Positions 1-9,462 of a stretch of 19,870 nt of DNA are shown piece after piece. Position 1 is the stretch's first letter. Every line of letters begins with the position of its first letter. The notes below the pieces were generated by a model that did no database searches, was not told where the DNA came from, and saw only the letters and a program-made list of their open reading frames with translations. The position numbers and the translations under genes are program-made. This DNA is from a virus (Duplodnaviria; Heunggongvirae; Uroviricota; Caudoviricetes), in the IMG/VR virus record IMGVR_UViG_2579778899_000005; one strand, given 5' to 3'.

Positions 1-355
1 AACACAAATGGCGATGGCGAGTATGGCGGTTCCCCTGCCATGCAGCCAGGCAGATGACGGAACGGCGACGATGTGGTTATCCGTCCTTGCGTTTGGCAGA
101 CAGGCCGACGCACTGGCAAAACACCGCAAAGGCGAACTGGTGAGCGTGGCGGGTAACATGCAGGTAAGCCAGTGGACAGGCCAGAACGGCGAAACGCGGC
201 AGGGCTGGCAGGTTATCGCAGACAGCGTAATCAGTGCGCGAACGGCGCGACCGGGCGGCAAAAAAGGCCAACAGGGGCAGGCCACTGATGCACTGAACAG
301 GGCAAAACAACAGGCAGGGAATGATGATCCGTACGGGGACGGGATACCGTTTTAA
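1..355 (+). CDS. ssb: Single-stranded DNA-binding protein, C-terminal part (5' end lies upstream of the window)
   Basis: Frame open from the window edge to TAA 353-355. Translation shows the C-terminal half of an OB fold, a Gly/Gln-rich linker and an acidic tail ending DDPYGDGIPF, matching the SSB C-terminal signature (E. coli SSB ends DDDIPF). Confidence 0.8.
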   Translation, partial: TQMAMASMAVPLPCSQADDGTATMWLSVLAFGRQADALAKHRKGELVSVAGNMQVSQWTGQNGETRQGWQVIADSVISARTARPGGKKGQQGQATDALNRAKQQAGNDDPYGDGIPF

Positions 356-370
356 GCAGTGAGGTACAGC

Positions 371-649
371 ATGATTAAAGACAGCAAAGCGGAAGAACTG
401 GAGGCTAAAGGGCTGTACCGGAGAGCGGCGGCACGTTGGGCTGATGTTATGTGGCTGGTGAGCACTGACAAGGAGCGCGAACAAGTGGCAAAGCGTCGCG
501 CGGAATGTATCCGTAAGGCAGCACGCCCACCAGTCATACCGGATAATTTCGGAATACTGAAAGAGGCCATAAACCGCACACATACCGGGATGGGCTTACA
601 GAAACCTGGCGGTGAGATGTTCAGGAACTACCCGAAAAAAAAGGGATAA
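371..649 (+). CDS. Small regulatory protein, tentatively PerC/ANR-like
   Basis: ATG 371 with GAGG 361-364 upstream, stop TAA 647-649. N-terminus MIKDSKAEELEAKGLYRRAAARWADV resembles, from memory, the PerC-family signature of small prophage-encoded activators. Family assignment is not verified. Confidence 0.45.
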   Translation: MIKDSKAEELEAKGLYRRAAARWADVMWLVSTDKEREQVAKRRAECIRKAARPPVIPDNFGILKEAINRTHTGMGLQKPGGEMFRNYPKKKG

Positions 650-698
650 TTGATAACGGTTGTTAACTGTTTCTGGTATCGTGGCAGCAGGAGGAAAC

Positions 699-947
699 AT
701 GCCAGTGACATTTGAAGAAGTCCAGCAACATAAAAAGCTTCATGATTTTGATGATCTGGAAACCACGACAGTAAAAAAATATCGCCGGCTGCTTTCTTCC
801 GATGCGTTATTTTTTGTGGATCATCATGATTTTCTGCGTAGCTCACTGACTGGGGAAATTTTCGCAACCAACCGTGAGCAGGTGGAAGCGATGATCGAAT
901 ATCTGTGGAAAATAAGGCGCAGAATGCGTGATCCCGTGAAACGGTAG
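699..947 (+). CDS. Hypothetical protein (82 aa)
   Basis: ATG 699 preceded by AGGAGG 689-694, stop TAG 945-947, immediately followed by a strong hairpin terminator. No recognisable family. Confidence 0.5.
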   Translation: MPVTFEEVQQHKKLHDFDDLETTTVKKYRRLLSSDALFFVDHHDFLRSSLTGEIFATNREQVEAMIEYLWKIRRRMRDPVKR

Positions 948-953
948 AATAAT

Positions 954-985
954 AATGGCCTGGTATTTTCCAGGCCATTATTTTT
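954..985. terminator. Bidirectional rho-independent terminator between convergent genes
   Basis: Perfect 10 bp inverted repeat AATGGCCTGG (954-963) / CCAGGCCATT (970-979) with a 6 nt loop, followed by TTTTT 981-985 and preceded by an A-rich run on the other strand. Lies between the stops of the + gene (947) and the - gene (984). Confidence 0.65.
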
Positions 986-1457
986 AGAAGTCGATCTCTG
1001 TATCGCGATTAAATTCATCGCTAAGGTAAAGTGCTTCGCTTGGGCATTTTCCGTTTTCCAGTAATGTTTCCCAGAAATCTTTATCGAAACATCCCTCAAG
1101 ATACAGATAGCGGCAGATGTGAAGTAAATCACTTCGTGTCCATCCGTGCATGCTGCTACTTGTTACACCATATTCACTTTCTAGTTTATAGAATGTGAGC
1201 GCCTCCCGGTCGTGCCAGGCTTTGCACAGACGATCGTATATCTTTTTAGCTTTGTTTTTAGATGTGCCGAAAAACTCTTCGTAAATTTCATGTGGGCGAG
1301 TAGGAATACTTCCGTCGCCATCCTGCAAGAAAGGATAAACATCTGCCTCCCAGGCATACACGTAAGAATCGCTGAACTCATCATAGTGTTTACCAAGGTG
1401 GAGAATCTGCAATCGTTGCTGAATGAACATTGCTTTTTTCAGTTCATTTTCTGACAT
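984..1457 (-). CDS. Hypothetical protein (157 aa), AT-rich cargo or moron-like gene
   Basis: Minus-strand ATG (complement of 1455-1457) preceded by GGAGG (complement of 1466-1470) at 8 nt spacing. Visibly more AT-rich than flanking phage genes, with its own upstream region and a terminator. No recognisable domain. Confidence 0.6.
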   Translation of the reverse strand: MSENELKKAMFIQQRLQILHLGKHYDEFSDSYVYAWEADVYPFLQDGDGSIPTRPHEIYEEFFGTSKNKAKKIYDRLCKAWHDREALTFYKLESEYGVTSSSMHGWTRSDLLHICRYLYLEGCFDKDFWETLLENGKCPSEALYLSDEFNRDTEIDF

Positions 1458-1574
1458 AGTTCGTTCCTCCTGATTGACGAGCAGAAAATGTACGGAACAG
1501 CTTATTTATTTTTTCAGGTTTTGTAAATTATTTGTTCGTGGTTGTTCCAGGTTGTTCGGTGATTCTGGCTGATG

Positions 1575-1633
1575 TTTACATACTGATTTTTATGTATATG
1601 TTGGCGTGTGGCACTCAGACGTGAGCCGCCACA
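1575..1633 (+). promoter_or_regulatory. Candidate sigma70 promoter plus inverted-repeat operator or 5' hairpin upstream of the capsid operon
   Basis: TTTACA 1575-1580, 16 bp spacer, TATGTT 1597-1602, then inverted repeat TGTGGC (1607-1612) - N15 - GCCACA (1628-1633). Pattern-based only. Confidence 0.3.
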
Positions 1634-1648
1634 ATGCCGCCTGACCCC

Positions 1649-1683
1649 CTGCGCGATGCCGGGTTGATCTGCGAGATGCCGGG
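1649..1683 (+). repeat. Two 15 bp direct repeats CTGCG(C/A)GATGCCGGG spaced 20 bp apart
   Basis: Copies at 1649-1663 and 1669-1683 differ at one position. They sit about 70-100 bp upstream of the capsid start codon, suggesting a phased protein-binding site. Confidence 0.5.
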
Positions 1684-1751
1684 AGTGTCGGGCGGCGCTC
1701 CCTCCGTGTTGGTTTCACGTCCTGAATCTTAACCAATACGAGAAAACCTTC

Positions 1752-2897
1752 ATGAAGAAATTAATCGAACTCCGCCAGCAAAAAACCGCCCTGAAAAACC
1801 AGATGCGATCCCTGCTGGAAAAAGCCGACAGTGAAAACCGCAGCCTGAACGATGACGAAGGCAAACAGTTTGATGAACTGCGTGCAAAAGCCGATTCCCT
1901 CGACACAGAAATCTCCCGTCTTGAAGCTGTTGCGGATGAAGAACGTAACCAGCCAGGTGTTTCCGTCGAAGAGAAAATTACCAAAGACGAACTGCGCTCT
2001 TACATTCTGACCGGGGAAACCCGCAACCTGTCCGGCAGTGTCCCGGCTGATGGTGGTTATACGGTTATCCCGGAACTGAACAGAGAAATTATGCGTCAGC
2101 TTTCTGATGAATCGGTGATGCGTAAAATCTGTACCGTTAAAACCATTCACAGCAATGAATTTAAGCAACTGGTTTCTGCCGGGGGCGCGGTCGTTGAACA
2201 CGGCGAAGAAGGTGCGGCACGTAACCAGACGGCAACACCAAAACTGAATGAAGTCAGTATCCGCCTGTATCCGATCTACGCTTACCCGAAAACCACTCAG
2301 GAAATTATCGATTTTTCCGAAGTCGATATTATGGGCTGGTTATCTTCTGAAATTGGCGACACTTTCGTTGATACCGAAGAAACGGATCTGGTTTCCGGTG
2401 ATGGCGAGAAAAAAGCTAAAGGTTTCCTGGCTTTTCCGCGCACTGCGGATAACGACAAAACCCGTCCTTTCGGTACGCTCCAGACGAAAAAAGTTACTGG
2501 CAGTCTCAGCGCCGACATGCTGATTGACCTGAAATTTACGCTGCGCAATAAGTACCGCAAAAAAGCTGTATGGGTGATGAACTCAAATACAGCCGCCTCC
2601 GCACAAAAACTGAAAAATGCCACTGGTGATTACATCTGGCGCGATCGTTTACAGGCTGGTGATCCTGATTCTCTGCTGGGGCTTCCGGTTGAATATCTGG
2701 AATTTATGCCGGACGGTGTGATTGCAGTAGGTGACTTTAAGCGCGGTTATTTCATCGTTGACCATGAAACCGGTACGCGTACCCGTCCGGATTTCAGCGA
2801 ACCTGGATTCATTAACATCTATACCCAGAAATATCTGGGCGGTGGTGTGGTGGATTCGAACGCCATCAAGATTCTGGAAATTCAGGCTGGCAAGTAA
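1752..2897 (+). CDS. Major capsid protein, HK97 family, with N-terminal coiled-coil delta (scaffold) domain
   Basis: 381 aa. N-terminal ~100 aa is a charged coiled coil. C-terminal part carries HK97-fold motifs (KGFLAFP, GDFKRGYFIVD, GGGVVDSNAIKILEI). No separate scaffold gene. Confidence 0.9.
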   Translation: MKKLIELRQQKTALKNQMRSLLEKADSENRSLNDDEGKQFDELRAKADSLDTEISRLEAVADEERNQPGVSVEEKITKDELRSYILTGETRNLSGSVPADGGYTVIPELNREIMRQLSDESVMRKICTVKTIHSNEFKQLVSAGGAVVEHGEEGAARNQTATPKLNEVSIRLYPIYAYPKTTQEIIDFSEVDIMGWLSSEIGDTFVDTEETDLVSGDGEKKAKGFLAFPRTADNDKTRPFGTLQTKKVTGSLSADMLIDLKFTLRNKYRKKAVWVMNSNTAASAQKLKNATGDYIWRDRLQAGDPDSLLGLPVEYLEFMPDGVIAVGDFKRGYFIVDHETGTRTRPDFSEPGFINIYTQKYLGGGVVDSNAIKILEIQAGK

Positions 2898-2902
2898 TGA
2901 GC

Positions 2903-2927
2903 AAAGGGGGCTTCGGCCTCCTTTTTC
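2903..2927 (+). terminator. Rho-independent terminator or attenuator directly after the capsid gene
   Basis: GGGGGC (2906-2911), TTCG tetraloop, GCCTCC (2916-2921; one G-U pair), then TTTTT 2922-2926. Begins 6 nt after the capsid stop. Confidence 0.55.
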
Positions 2928-2946
2928 AGCTTTATGGAGTACACCG

Positions 2947-3507
2947 ATGAAAAATACCGATTTTGAAATCCGTACATCTGAACTGACCGCCTGCGATAAA
3001 AAACTGGTGGGTTATGCCGTTCGCTGGAACAGCCTTTCAGAAATTATCTGGGACGAATTCCGCGAACAGTTCACGCCGGGGGCTTTTGCTGACTATCTGG
3101 CGGCGGGTAATGATGTGCGCTGCCTGTATGAGCATGACTATACCCGACTGCTGGGGCGCACCAAATCCGGAACACTGGTACTGACTGAGGACAACACCGG
3201 GCTACGTTTTGAACTGACACCGCCTGATACCCAGCTTGGAAAAGATGTGCTTACGCTGGTGGAGCGTGGCGACATTACAGGAATGAGCTTTGGCTTTCGC
3301 GCATTATGCGAAGAGTGGAATATCGCGCAAAAACCGTATCTGCGCACTGTTACCGCCGCAGAACTTCGTGAAATCACGATAACGTCAATGCCTGCTTATC
3401 CCGAATCTGGCGTGGAGATTGCCCATCGTTCGTTGTTTGCACAGCACCCTGAATTACGCCCGGCAGGAAATAATCGTCATCGCTGGGCTGAACTGGCGGG
3501 GTTGTGA
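2947..3507 (+). CDS. Prohead maturation protease, HK97 (S78) family
   Basis: ATG 2947 with GGAG 2936-2939 at 7 nt spacing. Motifs GYAVRWN and GMSFGF are typical of HK97-family prohead proteases. Stop TGA 3505-3507. Confidence 0.85.
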   Translation: MKNTDFEIRTSELTACDKKLVGYAVRWNSLSEIIWDEFREQFTPGAFADYLAAGNDVRCLYEHDYTRLLGRTKSGTLVLTEDNTGLRFELTPPDTQLGKDVLTLVERGDITGMSFGFRALCEEWNIAQKPYLRTVTAAELREITITSMPAYPESGVEIAHRSLFAQHPELRPAGNNRHRWAELAGL

Positions 3508-3508
3508 T

Positions 3509-4723
3509 ATGTGGTGGCCTTTTAGTCGTAAAAAAAGCGATCTGCGTAACCTGTCCATTGATGATTTTCTGGCGCTGTCCGGCGTACCGAATACCGGATC
3601 CGGAGAATATGTTTCTGCCGGGACGGCTGAATCATTGCCTGCTGTGATGAACGCGGTTTCTGTCATCGCTGAGGCGGTGGCCACGATGCCGTGTTATCTG
3701 TATCTGGTACGCAATGACAAGGGCAGGGAGGCGCGGGAATGGCTGGACAGTCACCCGGTCGATATTCTGCTGAATGAGCAGCCTAATTCGTGCCAGACAC
3801 CTTACCAGTTTAAACGCACAATGATGCGTCACTGCCTGCTGAACGGTAACGCCTATGCGGTTATTGAGTGGGGGCGGGACGGTCAGCCAAAATCACTTCA
3901 TCCTTATGCGCCGGGGTGTGTTGTACCGGAACGCACTGGCGCACACAAATACCGCTATACCATCACCGAACCCTATACAGGAACGGTGCGCACGTATTTA
4001 CAGGAAGAAGTTCTGCATCTCCGCTATGCCTCGGATGATGGCTTTCTGGGGCGCTCCCCCGTCACGATTTGCCGTGAGGCGCTGGGGCTTGGCCTTGCTC
4101 AACAGCGTCACGGAGCCAGCATTATGAAAGATGGCATGATGGCGGCAGGGATTATCACGTCAGGCGAATGGCTGGACGGCGTAAAAGGTAAACAGGCATT
4201 AGACGCCCTGGAACGCTACAAGGGGGCGAAAAATGCCGGAAAAACGCCAATCCTTGAAGGGGGCATGGATTACAAGCAACTGGGGATGAGTAACCAGGAT
4301 GCGGAATGGCTGGCCTCCCGTCGCTTCTCCATTGAAGACATCGCCCGGATGTTCAACGTGTCGCCTATTTTTCTGCAGGAATACAGCAACAGCACCTACA
4401 GCAATTTCAGTGAGGCAAGCCGCGCGTTTCTGACCATGACAATGCGTCCGTGGCTGGCGAACTTCGAACAGCAAATCAAGGCCGCTTTGCTGGTGGCTTC
4501 TCCCGTACCTGGTACCCGTTATCTGGTTGAGTTTGATTCAGCCGATTTATTACGCGCCACCCCTACCGAACGTTACGCCACGTATGAGAAAGGGATTAAG
4601 AACGGGATCATGAATCCGAACGAAGCCCGCGAACGTGAGGGGATGCCGCCGCGTGAAGGTGGCGACGAATTCAGCCAGGCATGGAAGCAGACGGTGGAAA
4701 TTAAAGGTGAAAAAGATGAGTGA
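3509..4723 (+). CDS. Portal protein, HK97 family
   Basis: ATG 3509 lies 1 nt after the protease stop. 404 aa protein with the same overall pattern as the second portal in this window (NGNAYAV..., MDYKQLGMSNQDAEWLASRRFSIEDIARMFNVSP). Stop TGA 4721-4723. Confidence 0.9.
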   Translation: MWWPFSRKKSDLRNLSIDDFLALSGVPNTGSGEYVSAGTAESLPAVMNAVSVIAEAVATMPCYLYLVRNDKGREAREWLDSHPVDILLNEQPNSCQTPYQFKRTMMRHCLLNGNAYAVIEWGRDGQPKSLHPYAPGCVVPERTGAHKYRYTITEPYTGTVRTYLQEEVLHLRYASDDGFLGRSPVTICREALGLGLAQQRHGASIMKDGMMAAGIITSGEWLDGVKGKQALDALERYKGAKNAGKTPILEGGMDYKQLGMSNQDAEWLASRRFSIEDIARMFNVSPIFLQEYSNSTYSNFSEASRAFLTMTMRPWLANFEQQIKAALLVASPVPGTRYLVEFDSADLLRATPTERYATYEKGIKNGIMNPNEAREREGMPPREGGDEFSQAWKQTVEIKGEKDE

Positions 4724-5015
4724 AGAAAAAATTACACCTGATGAAGTCAGGGCACATCTTCGCCTTGATGACTTTTCCGGAGAAGGCGAACTTCTGAAAA
4801 TGTATACCGATGCGGCGCTGGAAGCCTGCCAGAAGCACATCGGGAAACGTTTTGAAGACGGTCTGGAATTTACCCCGGCAATGCGTGTTGGTTGCCTGAT
4901 GTACATCGCTTTTCTGTATGAGAACAGGGAAGCGGTTTCACCTGTGGAGCAGTCGGAACTGCCTATGGCTATTTCTGCGCTCTGGTCAGTTTATCGTGAT
5001 GTGGGGGTGTATTGA
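4716..5015 (+). CDS. Head-tail connector, gp6-like
   Basis: ATG 4716 overlaps the portal stop (ATGAGTGA) with AGGTG upstream. 99 aa, similar in size and pattern to the gp6-like protein at 12997-13302. Confidence 0.7.
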   Translation: MSEEKITPDEVRAHLRLDDFSGEGELLKMYTDAALEACQKHIGKRFEDGLEFTPAMRVGCLMYIAFLYENREAVSPVEQSELPMAISALWSVYRDVGVY

Positions 5016-5455
5016 TGCCGTGGCAACCATTAAGGCGTTGTACTGAACCGGGCTGTAATAAGCGTGTGAAGTCAGGCAAGTGTGAAGAGCACAGGCGGGC
5101 TGCATGGCGTGCAGAGGATGCCAGACGGGGACACCGCCGCGCGCGTGGGTATTCCCGACAGTGGGACAAATACCGCGCCCTGTATCTGAGCAAAAACCCG
5201 TTATGCGTGCGTTGTCTGGCTAAAGGTATTTATACGCCAGCTCTTGTGGTGGATCACATCATTCCCATCAATGGCGGCGGTGATGTTCTCTTCTGGCCTG
5301 AGTGGAATCACCAGGCATTGTGCCAGACGTGCCACAACCGTAAGACGACACGGGAAGATCCAGCCACGAAAGCGAACCGTAAGGCGGGCATGTATCGCGA
5401 GCAGGAAGAACGGGCGGCACATCGTAACGACTGGATGTATGGCGATGATGACTGA
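5015..5455 (+). CDS. HNH endonuclease (terminase-associated)
   Basis: ATG 5015 overlaps the upstream stop (TGATG). Cys-rich N-terminus and HNH core (VDHIIPINGGGD...WNHQALCQTCHNRKT). HNH genes adjacent to terS/terL are typical of cos-type HK97-like packaging modules. Confidence 0.85.
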   Translation: MPWQPLRRCTEPGCNKRVKSGKCEEHRRAAWRAEDARRGHRRARGYSRQWDKYRALYLSKNPLCVRCLAKGIYTPALVVDHIIPINGGGDVLFWPEWNHQALCQTCHNRKTTREDPATKANRKAGMYREQEERAAHRNDWMYGDDD

Positions 5456-5624
5456 ACAGGAGCAAAACAGGCTGATACGTGGACTGATAAGGCAGCGTGA
5501 CACATGGAAGGCACAGGAGACAGGGCACAAAGCCAACAGGACAGGGCGCACAGAACGCACCACAGCGAAGCGATTAACCGACCGTGACCGCGAGGTCATG
5601 GAATGTTTTCGCAATCGCTGGTGA
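5439..5624 (+). CDS. Possible small basic protein (61 aa); coding status uncertain
   Basis: ATG 5439 overlaps the HNH 3' end in another frame, stop TGA 5622-5624. Arg/Lys-rich, no clear RBS. May be non-coding sequence within a packaging-site region. Confidence 0.25.
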   Translation: MAMMTEQEQNRLIRGLIRQRDTWKAQETGHKANRTGRTERTTAKRLTDRDREVMECFRNRW

Positions 5625-5743
5625 GGCCGTCAGAGGGGGTGGGGGAGGTTTTCAGGACAAAACCGTCCCTGCCGGACACCGACCGCCTCCTCAAATTTTT
5701 GTGCACGGGAATTTTTTTGAAAATAATTGGGCGAAAAAAGAAC

Positions 5744-6100
5744 ATGGCAAGACCACCAAAAGCCCCCGCTTACCTGGATGAAATTGCGGTCAGGCAATGG
5801 AAGGAAAAATCGCGCCAGCTTTCCGTGCGGGAAGACCTTACCCCCGCCGACTGGAGCAATCTGGAGCTGTATTGCGTTAACTACTCCATATACCGCAAAG
5901 CCGTCGAAGACCTTGCGACGCGCGGGTTCAGCATTGTTAACAGTCAGGGCAGCGAGAGCAGAAACCCCGCCCTGAGCGCAAAGGCTGACGCAGAAAGAAT
6001 AATGATCAAAATGGCTTCTTTGCTGGGTTTTGACCCGGTAAGCCGCCGCAGAAATCCACCGGAAACAGAGGAAGAGGACGAGCTTGACCGCCTGGCATGA
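5744..6100 (+). CDS. Terminase small subunit, P27-family-like
   Basis: 118 aa beginning MARPPKAPAYLDEIAVRQWKE..., with the size and N-terminal pattern of P27-family TerS. Positioned between HNH and TerL. No strong SD before ATG 5744. Confidence 0.75.
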   Translation: MARPPKAPAYLDEIAVRQWKEKSRQLSVREDLTPADWSNLELYCVNYSIYRKAVEDLATRGFSIVNSQGSESRNPALSAKADAERIMIKMASLLGFDPVSRRRNPPETEEEDELDRLA

Positions 6101-7745
6101 GTACGCAGAAGGCGTAAAAAACGGCAAAATTACGGCCTGTAAACGACTGAAACAGGCCGTTAAACGGTATTTTTCTGACCTTGAAAACCCCCTTTACACG
6201 TTCGATCCGGAGGTCGTGGAGCGGTTTATTGCCTTTTCCAGGGTGTGTCCGCACGTAAAAGGCGCAATGCGCGGTAGCCCCATTGAGCTGGAGCCGTGGC
6301 AGCAGTTCGCCTTTGCCTGCATCCTGGGCTTTAAGGTTAAGGCCACCGGACGGCGCAAATACACCAGCGCATTCATTGAAGTACCGCGAAAAAATGCCAA
6401 ATCCACGGTCGCCGCTATCCTGGCTAACTGGTTTCTGGTTATGGAAAACGGGCAGCAGGATATTTACACCGCCGCCGTGAGTCGTGATCAGGCGCGGATC
6501 GTGTTTGATGATGCGCGTCAGATGTGCCTTTTATCCCGACCGTTACGAAAGCGGGTAAATATTCAGGCACACAAGGTGATACACCCGAAAACCAACAGCC
6601 TGTTAAAGCCACTGGCAGCAAAAGCGGCAACCATTGAGGGGACAAACCCGAGTCTCGCCATTGTGGATGAATATCACCTGCACCCTGACAACGGGGTTTA
6701 TTCCGCGCTTGAACTGGGAATGGGGGCGCGTCCGGAGGGGTTATTATTTGCCATCACCACATCGGGGAGCAACGTTGTTTCAGCCTGTAAACAACACTAC
6801 GACTATTGCTGCCAGATACTGGATGGTGAAGAGGTGAACGAATCCATGTTCGTGCTTATTTACGAGCTGGATGATGAAAGCGAGGTTGACGATCCGGCGA
6901 TGTGGATAAAGGCGAATCCCAATATCGATGTTTCCGTCGATCGTGAAAAACTGGCCTCAACCATCCAGAAAGCGCGGGGTATTCCGTCGCAGTGGGTGGA
7001 AATGCTCACCAAGCGATTCAATATCTGGTGTCAGGGGGCTACGCCGTGGATGGGTAACGGTGCATGGGCGGAGTGCGCCGGAACGTTCGCGGAGGCGGAT
7101 TTATACGGGCAGGAGTGCTACGCGGGGCTGGACTTATCATCAACTAGCGATATTTCCAGCGTGTGCTATGCCTTTCCGGTCGGTAAAAAGATTATGCTGG
7201 TTTCCCGTCACTATCTGCCGGAATTTCAGCTACAGAACCCCGCCAATAAAAACCGCGCCATCTATCGCCAGTGGGTAAAGGCGGGCTGGATACGCACAAC
7301 ACCGGGTGACTGCATTGATTATGACCGTATCCGTGATGACATCATGGCGGATGCAGAGAATTTCAATATCAGGCTGGTGGGCTTCGATACATGGAACGCC
7401 ACGCACCTGAGGACGCAGCTACAGGGGGCAGGATTTGAGGTGGAGCCGTTCCCGCAAACATACCTTCGTTTCAGTCCGGCGGCGAAATCGTTCGAAGTTT
7501 TTGTTAACCGGAAGGTGATTGTGCATCGTGGCGATCCGGTGCTGGCCTGGTCAATGAGTAATGTTGTGATGCAGAGTGACGCGAACGCCAATATCAAGCC
7601 GAACAAGAAAAAATCATCCAACAAGATAGACCCGAGCGTTGCGGCGCTGATGGCGTTTGGCACATTCCAGGCAGAGCATGAGGAATTTGCATTTGATATG
7701 AGCGACAGCCACAAAGAGCGGCTTGCGGCGTTTGATGGGGTATGA
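6084..7745 (+). CDS. Terminase large subunit (ATPase plus nuclease domains)
   Basis: 553 aa. Start taken as TTG 6084 (AGAGGA 6073-6078 upstream), overlapping the terS end; start codon choice is uncertain. The C-terminal half aligns by eye with the truncated terminase fragment at 8737-9462. Confidence 0.9.
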   Translation: MTAWHEYAEGVKNGKITACKRLKQAVKRYFSDLENPLYTFDPEVVERFIAFSRVCPHVKGAMRGSPIELEPWQQFAFACILGFKVKATGRRKYTSAFIEVPRKNAKSTVAAILANWFLVMENGQQDIYTAAVSRDQARIVFDDARQMCLLSRPLRKRVNIQAHKVIHPKTNSLLKPLAAKAATIEGTNPSLAIVDEYHLHPDNGVYSALELGMGARPEGLLFAITTSGSNVVSACKQHYDYCCQILDGEEVNESMFVLIYELDDESEVDDPAMWIKANPNIDVSVDREKLASTIQKARGIPSQWVEMLTKRFNIWCQGATPWMGNGAWAECAGTFAEADLYGQECYAGLDLSSTSDISSVCYAFPVGKKIMLVSRHYLPEFQLQNPANKNRAIYRQWVKAGWIRTTPGDCIDYDRIRDDIMADAENFNIRLVGFDTWNATHLRTQLQGAGFEVEPFPQTYLRFSPAAKSFEVFVNRKVIVHRGDPVLAWSMSNVVMQSDANANIKPNKKKSSNKIDPSVAALMAFGTFQAEHEEFAFDMSDSHKERLAAFDGV

Positions 7746-8035
7746 CGAGAATGAGCGAAACCGAACTACTAAAAATAATCCGCCGCGTTACCGGAATCAG
7801 CCAGGAAGCAGGCAAACAGGAGGCCACGCAGCCGGACAGCGTGATAGCCGAAAATTACGCGCGTGTGGTGGCTGAGGTGATGCGCCGTGACGGTATCGAG
7901 CTTAACGGCGTGGATATACGCAATATACGCACCAGAGTTCTGGAGTTGTTGTCATATCGTCGCCGCGTGGAGATGTACCAGGAGAAAGAAAAAATTACTT
8001 ACCACTGGAAGAAGCCGGAGCGGTTACGACGTTAA
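7742..8035 (+). CDS. Hypothetical protein (94-97 aa), translationally coupled to terL
   Basis: ATG 7742 overlaps the terL stop (ATGA); alternative ATG at 7751. Stop TAA 8033-8035. No recognisable family. Immediately followed by a phased repeat array. Confidence 0.5.
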   Translation: MTRMSETELLKIIRRVTGISQEAGKQEATQPDSVIAENYARVVAEVMRRDGIELNGVDIRNIRTRVLELLSYRRRVEMYQEKEKITYHWKKPERLRR

Positions 8036-8041
8036 CTTGTG

Positions 8042-8090
8042 GTGACATACCGTGACGGAGAGTGACAACCAGTGACACACAGTGACAAAA
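8042..8090 (+). repeat. Five tandem GTGAC(A) motifs at exact 10 bp periodicity
   Basis: GTGAC at 8042, 8052, 8062, 8072 and 8082 (GGTGACATAC CGTGACGGAG AGTGACAACC AGTGACACAC AGTGACAAAA). One copy per helical turn, starting 7 nt after the stop of ORF 7742-8035. Confidence 0.75.
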
Positions 8091-8108
8091 AGACGGTATT
8101 TAAATAGA

Positions 8109-8137
8109 GTGGGTGTTTAATACCCCCCGTTTTTTTT
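8109..8137 (+). terminator. Possible weak terminator (short imperfect stem plus T8 run)
   Basis: GGGT (8111-8114) can pair with ACCC (8122-8125), followed by C-rich bases and TTTTTTTT 8130-8137. The stem is weak, so this is tentative. Confidence 0.35.
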
Positions 8138-8289
8138 CGTGTGGTGCATGGTCAAAATGACCACGGAGAAGATACGCACCGAAGCAGAACAATTACCGTA
8201 GGTTAAAGCGACAGTATTCACACCAGCAACCTGATTATCAATTTTCAGCCGTTCGGTGGCATCACTGGCCCCATTTTCCTGATGGGGTT

Positions 8290-8442
8290 GCGGGTTATTT
8301 GGGGGGTATTTGCGGGTTATTTTGAATGTCTCGCGGGTTACGCTTTGGCTAATATTCAAACGCATCATTTTTTAACGCATTGATATTAAAGAATAAAAAA
8401 TACTTAGCAAGCGAAGATAACCCGCTAACCCGCATAACCCGC
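8290..8442. repeat. Iteron-like repeat clusters: 3x GCGGGTTA(T) at ~22 bp spacing, an AT-rich core, then 3x inverted TAACCCGC in tandem
   Basis: Direct copies start at 8290, 8312 and 8333, with a degenerate GGGGGTATTT copy at 8301-8311. Reverse-complement copies at 8418-8425, 8426-8433 and 8435-8442. They flank a ~75 bp AT-rich segment (8343-8417). A 12 bp GTATATATATAC palindrome follows at 8451-8462. Confidence 0.75.
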
Positions 8443-8629
8443 ACTGTTTTGTATATATATACGAAAAATTGCATTCAGGGGGGTGATCGAAATTTCTACT
8501 GCCTCTTATCTCTTTGAGTGCTCACCTCGTCAGATTGTTACACACAAGAAATAAAAAATGCTTCGCGATGGTAGGTCGAATCACTGTATCAAAAAACGGT
8601 GTGTATCAGCATTAAAACAATACAGATAC

Positions 8630-8650
8630 GTGTATTGCGCTGTGTATTGC
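8630..8650 (+). repeat. Tandem GTGTATTGC repeat (2 copies, 12 bp apart)
   Basis: Copies at 8630-8638 and 8642-8650, with a related GTGTATC at 8601-8607, in AT-rich non-coding DNA. Confidence 0.6.
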
Positions 8651-8736
8651 TTGATGATTTATAAAGACTGTTTTTTCATGTTAAACGATTGATATACAGG
8701 TGATTTTAAAAAACTTGAAATATTCTTACCAAACAC

Positions 8737-9462
8737 ATGAATGTGTGGGTAACAGCAGAGTCTGCCTGGATGGACATGATTAAGTGGGAGAAGTGCGAAT
8801 ACATTGCCCCACGACATGAGCTGAAAACGTATCCCATGTGGGTCGGCGTTGACCTTGCTCATAAGATTGATATCTGTGCGGCGGCAAAACTCTGGCGAAC
8901 GGATAACGGGCATGTTCATGCCGATTTTAAATTCTGGCTTCCGGAAGGACGGCTGGAACGATGCTCGCGGCAGCAGGCAGAACTTTACCGGAAGTGGGCG
9001 GAGATGGATAAGCTGATTCTGACGGATGGTGATGTTATCGATCATGCTCAGATAAAAAGTGACTTACTGGAATGGATTGGTGGTGAAAACCTCAGGGAAC
9101 TGGGATTTGACCCGTGGAGCGCGATGCAGTTCAGCCTGGCACTGGCTGAAGAAGGGATACCGCTGGTGGAGGTTCCGCAGACGGTTCGCAATCTGTCAGA
9201 GGCCATGAAGGAAACGGAATCACTGGTCTATGCCGGGCGTTTCCATCACAGCAATCATCCGGTCATGAACTGGATGATGTCTAACGTTACGGTAAAACCG
9301 GACAAAAACGACAATATCTTCCCGAATAAATCCACGCTGGAAGCCAAAATCGACGGCCCTGTTGCGATGTTTACAGCAATGAGCCGGATGCTGGTCAATG
9401 GTGGTGAACCGGAGCTGGATCTGTCTGAACATCTGGTCAGCGTGGGCATCCGCTCGCTTTAA
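8737..9462 (+). pseudogene. Terminase large subunit remnant: C-terminal nuclease half only, N-terminal ATPase domain absent
   Basis: The 241 aa ORF aligns by eye with the C-terminal ~240 aa of the intact TerL at 6084-7745 (NVWVTAESAWM vs NIWCQGATPWM; VGVDLAHKID vs AGLDLSSTSD). An in-frame stop at 8716-8718 and a lack of SD upstream indicate truncation near 8720-8740. Confidence 0.7.

Follow-up and report, generated by a model that had tools for sequence, protein, structure and literature searches.

In a 19,870-nucleotide stretch of DNA from a virus of the Caudoviricetes (IMG/VR record IMGVR_UViG_2579778899_000005; hereafter, the window), an interval of 700 bp at positions 8036–8736 separates a complete packaging module from a partial gene for the large terminase subunit (terL), and the locus raises the question of what this interval is and why the terminase gene beside it appears incomplete. 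The initial annotation, made from the letters alone, described a non-coding junction between two phage-derived blocks and proposed that it could be a recombination or integration boundary, a replication or packaging site, or the host of a small RNA. Our analysis indicates that the interval is very probably the non-coding right end of a capsid-forming phage-inducible chromosomal island (cf-PICI) of approximately 15 kb, integrated in the same orientation in the terL gene of an HK97-like helper prophage, at the site catalogued for helper-embedded PICIs (HE-PICIs) as A:Terminase_1:246, and that it carries a GTGAC array, an origin-type block, the P arm of an attachment site and the attR core. Overall, the integration boundary held and a replication site is probable, whereas a packaging site and a small RNA found no support.

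The boundary suspected at this junction is present, but it is a single 7-bp site (8726–8732) and not the whole 700 bp. Alignment to related elements, which had been suggested as a check, located both the breakpoint and the attachment (att) core, TTACCAA. When attL (from relatives), attR (from the window) and attB are aligned three ways, the exchange falls at this core, and attL and attR have only TTACCAA and imperfect flanks in common. The core lies inside the terL codon run …NFFTK|HMNVW…, and joining the terL 5′ part of the related strain rl0044 in silico to the window across the core yields an in-frame TerL of 585 aa with ATPase and nuclease domains. A 507-bp synthetic sequence of the joined terL is uninterrupted, at 99.6% identity, in 905 of 5,426 complete E. 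coli genomes. The insertion is precise, and an in silico crossover within the core restores an intact terL. The supposedly truncated terminase beside the interval is a helper gene cut in two by the insertion, of which the window holds the intact 3′ part. Excision should make this gene whole again, with …GAAATATTCTTACCAAGAAAGTAAC… predicted as the attP junction and …GAATTTTTTTACCAAACACATG… as the restored terL. All of 8036–8725 is part of the left-hand element, the satellite.

The sequence next to the core is organized as a presumed integrase-binding arm. In a megablast search against the complete E. coli genomes, the interval proved to be a mosaic: positions 8036–8499 are 98% identical to islands integrated in yifB, and 8268–8736 are common to other terL-integrated islands, where they adjoin a gene annotated as “terminase TerL endonuclease subunit, missing N-terminus.” The match to islands in yifB weakens abruptly at about 8497, beyond which it is partial for approximately 80 bp and then gives way to divergence. 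The last ~230 bp of the interval therefore co-vary with the integration site, as is explained by their being the P arm of attP. Within this arm, exact copies of GTGTATTGC occur only at 8630 and 8642, and the doubled TGTATTGC motif that they form ends 79 bp before the core centre (8729). A second, co-oriented doubled motif in the relative PEC240 starts 133 bp after the centre of the attL core. When the opposite end of the element was searched for this segment, as had also been suggested beforehand, nothing was found again except the att core, the iterons and the doubled arm motif. In PEC240, the P′-arm copy of doubled TGTATTGC (L004:14760–14782) lies 20 bp upstream of the int start codon (14802), and integrase binding there could autoregulate int.

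These features correspond to a described family. HE-PICIs are islands with a clade of integrases, that of 11capE, which targets 14 sites in prophage late genes, including Terminase_1:245/246 (Tommasini, Mageeney and Williams, 2023; PMC10111431). The supplement to that paper lists E. coli elements of approximately 15 kb at A_Terminase_1_246 with the identity block “ttaccaa,” together with an attR sequence that is identical to window 8674–8750, the satellite side being 8674–8725. It also describes a doubled motif, tgTGTATTGCantgTGTATTGCa, located 81 ± 2 bp upstream and 132 ± 2 bp downstream of the attP centre. The window and its relatives show three of the features by which HE-PICIs are recognized, namely a restorable split late gene on the same strand, the motif spacing, and the identity block with its attR. 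The likeness to the elements at A:Terminase_1:246 extends to a satellite of ~15 kb inside and co-oriented with a prophage late gene, to the same 7-bp ttaccaa with an identical attR and doubled TGTATTGC at the published distances, and to the zone order Integration-Bro-Replication-Late; at the junction itself, there is no difference. The junction residue, 342, falls at about position 61 of the Pfam model TerL_nuclease, estimated as ~245 of the old Terminase_1 model, so that agreement with the published coordinate Terminase_1:246 is an estimate, Pfam having since split that model. The junction is an already-known kind of element at a catalogued site (Tommasini et al., 2023). Neither origin-type iterons adjoining attR nor a GTGAC array is described in the part of that publication available to us.

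The arrangement also resembles the attP of lambda-type systems, with a tyrosine integrase bearing an N-terminal arm-binding domain, a 7-bp overlap core, and repeated arm-type sites ~80 bp and ~130 bp from the core on two arms. It differs in the sequence of the arm motif and in its target, which here is a phage gene and not a chromosomal site. The authors of the HE-PICI study saw no site resembling that of integration host factor (IHF) (Tommasini et al., 2023).

Relatives that are 94–98% identical to the whole window supply the gene order on both sides of the junction. In these annotated relatives, the left part of the helper consists of HNH, TerS and the 5′ part of terL. The satellite then starts with a tyrosine integrase, an AlpA-like helix-turn-helix (HTH) protein, Bro-N, Icd-like, DUF4222, a DUF927 primase and ssb, and continues with a late module of capsid, prohead protease, portal, connector, HNH, TerS (P27 family) and TerL, followed by a 97-aa gene and the gap. 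To the right, the helper resumes with the 3′ part of terL, portal, protease, capsid and tail genes. Pfam searches confirmed HNH, TerS, TerL, AlpA and DUF927, as well as an integrase with an arm-binding domain (Phage_integrase and Arm-DNA-bind_3). The features that define a cf-PICI are thus distributed over the relatives (int, alpA and primase) and the window (its own capsid-to-TerL module), with no tail genes; the tail genes to the right are those of the helper prophage. Given this PICI gene order, the Pfam domains and the lack of tail genes, the left block is therefore read as a cf-PICI of ~15 kb, of which window 1–8725 is, to judge from its genes, the right part. Of the two blocks that were both called phage-derived, the left one is accordingly a phage satellite rather than a prophage, and the right one is the prophage that hosts it.

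The same observations bear on the possibility that two decaying prophages were joined here by illegitimate recombination or deletion, leaving a scar with a dead terminase fragment at its edge. Such a scar might be suspected because two head-morphogenesis modules are neighbours and the window holds only part of one terminase, and yet we regard it as extremely improbable: the break is base-precise at the 7-bp core, relatives have the missing terL 5′ part upstream at a distance of exactly one satellite length, the joined parts form a continuous frame whose sequence is intact in 905 genomes, the arm motifs stand at the published distances (Tommasini et al., 2023), and the left block has full PICI architecture without tail genes.

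For annotation, a satellite in terL means that the interval should be read as the attR of the satellite with its arm sites, and the “terminase remnant” as a split, restorable helper gene and not as a pseudogene. By analogy with the published HE-PICI work, the tyrosine integrase would bind the core and the arm motifs, and after induction the composite would first excise and replicate, whereupon excision of the satellite would reconstitute terL. As long as the satellite is in place, the prophage could not package its DNA, a cis-regulatory coupling as described for HE-PICIs (Tommasini et al., 2023).

Two terminase genes meet near the junction, and the satellite TerL (window 6084–7745) is 31% identical to the helper TerL that the satellite interrupts. 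The integration point is a conserved TK..N.W motif, which reads NFFTKHMNVW in the helper and EMLTKRFNIW in the satellite. At this motif, the satellite’s own terL does not have the TTACCAA core context.

Within the cf-PICIs, the closest point of comparison is the prototype EcCIEDL933 (Alqurainy et al., 2023; bioRxiv 10.1101/2022.09.08.507074), which has a like late module in like order, a small last gene, no tail genes, and a DUF927 primase with GCGGGTTA iterons. In contrast to the island described here, EcCIEDL933 lies between roxA and phoQ and not in a prophage gene, and its two iteron clusters are contiguous, directly after the primase gene. The text of that study gives six chromosomal attB sites (Alqurainy et al., 2023). 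A further feature of cf-PICIs is that they form small capsids of their own and combine them with helper tails. At the right end of EcCIEDL933 (L005:24387–25244), ~850 bp of non-coding sequence separate the last gene from phoQ, and a single exact iteron (24716) is found there; this right end is therefore organized unlike that of the window.

The description of the interval as such proved accurate. As had been stated, the 97-aa open reading frame (ORF) ends at 8035 and the terL 3′ fragment has its first ATG at 8737, and between them there is no credible gene; the only ORFs of at least 40 aa encode 83 aa (minus strand, 8117–8368), 41 aa, 45 aa (with a TTG start) and 44 aa. The interval is indeed AT-rich, with 59.9% A+T vs. 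48.3% for the whole window and a GC fraction down to 0.38–0.45 in a sliding profile, and its repeat families are real, with counts beyond shuffle expectation. The individual features are collected in Table 1.

Table 1. Features of the interval and its immediate surroundings in window coordinates (columns: feature, position, strand, basis or remark).
Last satellite gene, 97 aa, function unknown	7742–8035	+	ORF list; just outside the interval
Five GTGAC cores at exact 10-bp spacing (GTGACATACC GTGACGGAGA GTGACAACCA GTGACACACA GTGACAAAAA)	8042–8091	+	Repeat search
Variable spacer, with weak terminator-like hairpin and T-run at 8111–8140	8111–8263		Terminator scan
Hairpin GGCCCCATTTTCCTGATGGGG, left edge of the conserved block	8266–8287	+	-13.9 kcal/mol, z = -0.8, not significant
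Left iterons, GCGGGTTA at 8290, 8312 and 8333, with a degenerate copy at ~8301	8288–8340	+	Repeat search
A+T-rich spacer, 76 bp, 69.7% A+T, putative DNA-unwinding element	8341–8416		Composition
Right iterons, three inverted GCGGGTTA (TAACCCGC at 8418, 8426 and 8435)	8417–8442	-	Repeat search
Conserved tail of the origin-like block, ACTGTTTTGTATATATATACGAAAAATTG...	8443–8500		Relatives
P arm of the satellite attP, specific to the terL-targeting integrase	8501–8725	+	Common to terL-integrated islands
Doubled arm motif cgTGTATTGCgctgTGTATTGCt, presumably bound by the arm domain of the integrase	8629–8651	+	Match to published tgTGTATTGCantgTGTATTGCa
attR core TTACCAA, crossover/identity block, true satellite-helper boundary	8726–8732	+	Sole block common to attL, attR and attB
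Helper terL 3′ part, nuclease domain, frame continuing from the core	8733–9462	+	In-frame join

The suggestion that the interval holds a replication site is probably correct for 8288–8470, which is homologous to the primase-adjacent origin of other PICIs and has iterons under selective constraint. The published PICI origin consists of two sets of iterons around an A+T-rich region, 3′ of the rep gene, and has been found functional for EcCICFT073 (Fillol-Salom et al., 2018; PMC6092414). In the window, positions 8288–8442 contain two iteron sets around an A+T-rich region. The iteron GCGGGTTA occurs eight times in the window, and six of these copies fall within 8290–8442, compared to a shuffle mean of 0.49, with none of 200 shuffles reaching eight copies. 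In a distant search, the conserved block (8264–8500) had a match in 357 genomes, EDL933 among them. Both EcCIEDL933 and a classical PICI of strain AR_0011 have a homologous sequence (77–87% identity) immediately behind the DUF927 gene, where it forms the 3′ half of a region of ~330 bp with 11–12 iterons. The left iterons align with the primase-adjacent origin iterons of these two islands, and the right iterons agree exactly over 18 bp with the iterons that relatives have near the primase gene. The tail of the block is conserved to ~8470 in both distal and primase-proximal contexts, and the hairpin at its left edge is kept in islands of the distal type.

Conservation within the block is concentrated on the iterons. 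The A+T-rich spacer diverges among relatives, whereas the flanking iterons are invariant; across 11 distinct sequences, 38 of 40 iteron columns are invariant vs. 55 of the 118 other columns of the block (Fisher p = 9e-9, relatedness uncontrolled). In an island with a different primase (D5_N/DUF5906), the iterons are GTCTACC and there is no distal block. The C-terminus of the DUF927 primase has a weak match to HTH_56, which would fit iteron recognition. We infer that 8288–8470 is part of the replication system of the satellite and would be bound by the DUF927 primase-helicase. Outside the E. coli genomes, the plasmid collection gave no match, and a distant search of the phage collection gave a sole match of 77 bp to an unannotated record of 2.2 kb. 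That record, OR845527.1 (2,183 bp, deposited as “Escherichia phage ECO95 1-6-1”), has an 88% match to window 8392–8468, covering the right iterons and the A+T-rich region, and may, from this similarity, be a PICI origin fragment from a phage preparation.

The layout of the iterons is unusual in that they are divided between two places. In the lineage of the window, the primase-proximal region holds the first cluster only, with two direct and four inverted iterons around a spacer of 73% A+T, so that six iterons are proximal to the primase and the other six are distal, beside attR. The same distal placement is found in islands at yifB, thiM, yejO and dinD, and the split layout is seen in ~160 genomes vs. 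141 with the contiguous layout, which makes it about as common in E. coli as the textbook one. Satellite P4 offers a parallel: it has a primase-helicase initiator and iterons in two separate cis-acting regions, ori and crr, several kb apart. Both regions are required, as established for P4 only, and P4 uses helper capsid proteins for packaging. The island described here is alike in being a satellite with a primase-helicase initiator and iterons in two separated regions. We tentatively suggest, at somewhat less than even likelihood, that the satellite origin is functionally split, with one GCGGGTTA cluster beside the DUF927 gene and the other, with the A+T-rich unwinding element, ~8 kb away by attP, the two cooperating like ori and crr of P4. 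The DUF927 primase-helicase would bind GCGGGTTA at both clusters and melt the A+T-rich spacer, and the clusters might cooperate at a distance by initiator-mediated looping, bracketing the capsid and packaging module. If both clusters are needed, the rule that “ori follows pri,” used to recognize PICIs, would have to change. The split may moreover be a clue to the way in which the capsid module was acquired, perhaps through insertion into the iteron array or recombination there. A search of the literature with the iteron sequence returned only unrelated primer matches, and no earlier description of a separated origin half beside attP was found, making this a modest lead.

Several points weigh against the interpretation of the interval as a satellite end with an origin. 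The exact mosaic of the window, in which the GTGAC array is combined with the terL-type arm, is missing from the complete-genome set, where only two records cover at least 80% of the interval, both without the array. The left end of the satellite (int, primase and attL) lies beyond the window and is supplied by relatives that are 94–98% identical, and excision, integrase binding and replication are deduced here from sequence comparison. As for the origin, the homologue of the block in canonical islands follows the primase gene on its 3′ side, but here adjacency to the rep gene, one defining feature of PICI origins, is lacking: the block stands ~8 kb downstream of the DUF927 gene, past TerL and the packaging module and beside attR, with half of the iterons left at the primase. 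Identity of its iterons with those of EcCICFT073, the only E. coli PICI origin tested experimentally, could not be demonstrated. The comparison of invariant columns makes no correction for shared ancestry, and the block could be a relic or a regulatory site instead of an initiating origin.

This last alternative holds that the distal block is not a replication start but either the leftover of a rearrangement or a site that regulates or titrates the primase-initiator (in copy control, handcuffing or incompatibility), and that initiation takes place at the primase-proximal cluster. It rivals only the origin assignment and is compatible with integration in terL. The proximal cluster, with direct and inverted iterons around its own A+T-rich spacer, could suffice alone, and the origin described for PICIs directly follows the rep gene on its 3′ side (Fillol-Salom et al., 2018). 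A dead relic, however, would not be expected to persist with near-invariant iterons in ~160 genomes, spread over at least five integration sites (terL, yifB, thiM, yejO and dinD); a regulatory role would be fully compatible with such persistence. Taken together, we consider it somewhat unlikely that the distal block is not a replication start.

The iteron block also speaks to the proposal of a packaging site, in which the interval or the block would be the cohesive-end (cos) or recognition site of the satellite HNH-TerS-TerL machinery. The interval does stand directly downstream of the satellite terminase genes, terS-terL, and the packaging of cf-PICIs uses cos sites. In HK97-like phages, cos lies upstream of terS, and in classical PICIs it is upstream of rpp. 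In EcCIEDL933 the same block adjoins the primase gene, as it does in a classical PICI without its own terminase, and the iteron sequence goes with the primase type. Neither co-variation with the cognate small terminase nor adjacency to terS was seen: islands with identical TerS (WP_001353110.1) differ in the presence of the GTGAC array and the variable spacer, and the interval has no similarity to the HNH-terS intergenic regions of helpers or islands. A packaging role is thus highly improbable.

A small RNA or a small protein, such as the 83-aa minus-strand ORF, is likewise very unlikely to be what the interval encodes. Promoter-like hexamers are present and a hypothetical protein, WP_028120178.1, is called here in some genomes by the Prokaryotic Genome Annotation Pipeline (PGAP); even so, an Rfam scan of 7700–9000 returned nothing at E ≤ 1, Pfam and PHROG searches with the 83-aa ORF were negative, promoters and terminators are about as frequent as expected from shuffles, and three hairpin or array segments fold no better than shuffles (z = -1.1 in the variable spacer). 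As a candidate gene, the 83-aa ORF was rejected, as it has no domain match, runs across the iterons and is mostly deleted in tcmA_3, a relative lacking 8117–8262. WP_028120178.1 corresponds to this ORF (L002:10082–10333); RefSeq/PGAP annotates it in only part of the genomes, and it is probably an artefact of annotation.

Left of the conserved block, the interval is more variable. The 97-aa gene that precedes it has a product matching PHROG phrog_1561 (E = 9e-50) with no Pfam match, and its homologues are the terminal gene of many classical and capsid-forming PICIs. It is found in the window, PEC240 and tcmA_3 and is missing from rl0044, the closest relative of the whole window (98.4% identity), where the entire variable spacer is missing as well (L007:16746–17255) and the first iteron follows 82 bp past the TerL stop. 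As rl0044 is without both the 97-aa gene and the GTGAC array, both are therefore either dispensable or recently lost. The variable spacer is present in the window, PEC240 and E700025 and is missing from tcmA_3.

The phased GTGAC array is not a chance pattern, the triple having three overlapping matches in the sequence and none in 200 shuffles. Some classical and capsid-forming PICIs carry arrays of four or five copies downstream of their phrog_1561 gene, with the GTGAC cores intact across islands and some spacers changed. In PEC240, tcmA_3 and rl0044 the array is missing, and hairpin cassettes or nothing stand in its place; since it is missing from islands with identical TerS, it is dispensable for such islands. 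The phased core also occurs twice inside the helper “replisome organizer” gene of PEC240, where arrays at 2514–2538 and 2774–2798 (L004, minus strand) lie antisense within the gene at 2386–3456. Such helper arrays have four to five (C)GTGAC cores at 10–11-bp spacing. Among 120 IMG/VR contigs with four GTGAC cores at 10-bp phase (L017–L136), the array lies within or beside a homologue of the replisome organizer in 52 (32–87% identity) and adjoins a homologue of the 97-aa gene in six. This distribution suggests that phased GTGAC is the iteron type of the replisome-organizer initiator family, the arrays in the gene probably being its origin iterons. It is conceivable, if rather unlikely, that the fivefold array of the PICI mimics these helper iterons and lets the satellite sense, borrow or titrate the helper initiator; an interaction between satellite and helper at the level of replication is weakly indicated. 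No earlier description of such a phage-like GTGAC array was found, and it is offered as a lead only.

Islands without this array carry one to three cassette-like units, each combining the phrog_1561 3′ end with a hairpin (GGTAAC..TTGAT.., then a stem-loop), a module of variable number seen at L009:1548–1690, L010:1445–1590, L012:1731–1880 and L001:9927–10030. The locus L010 also carries a (GCTGGTA)n run.

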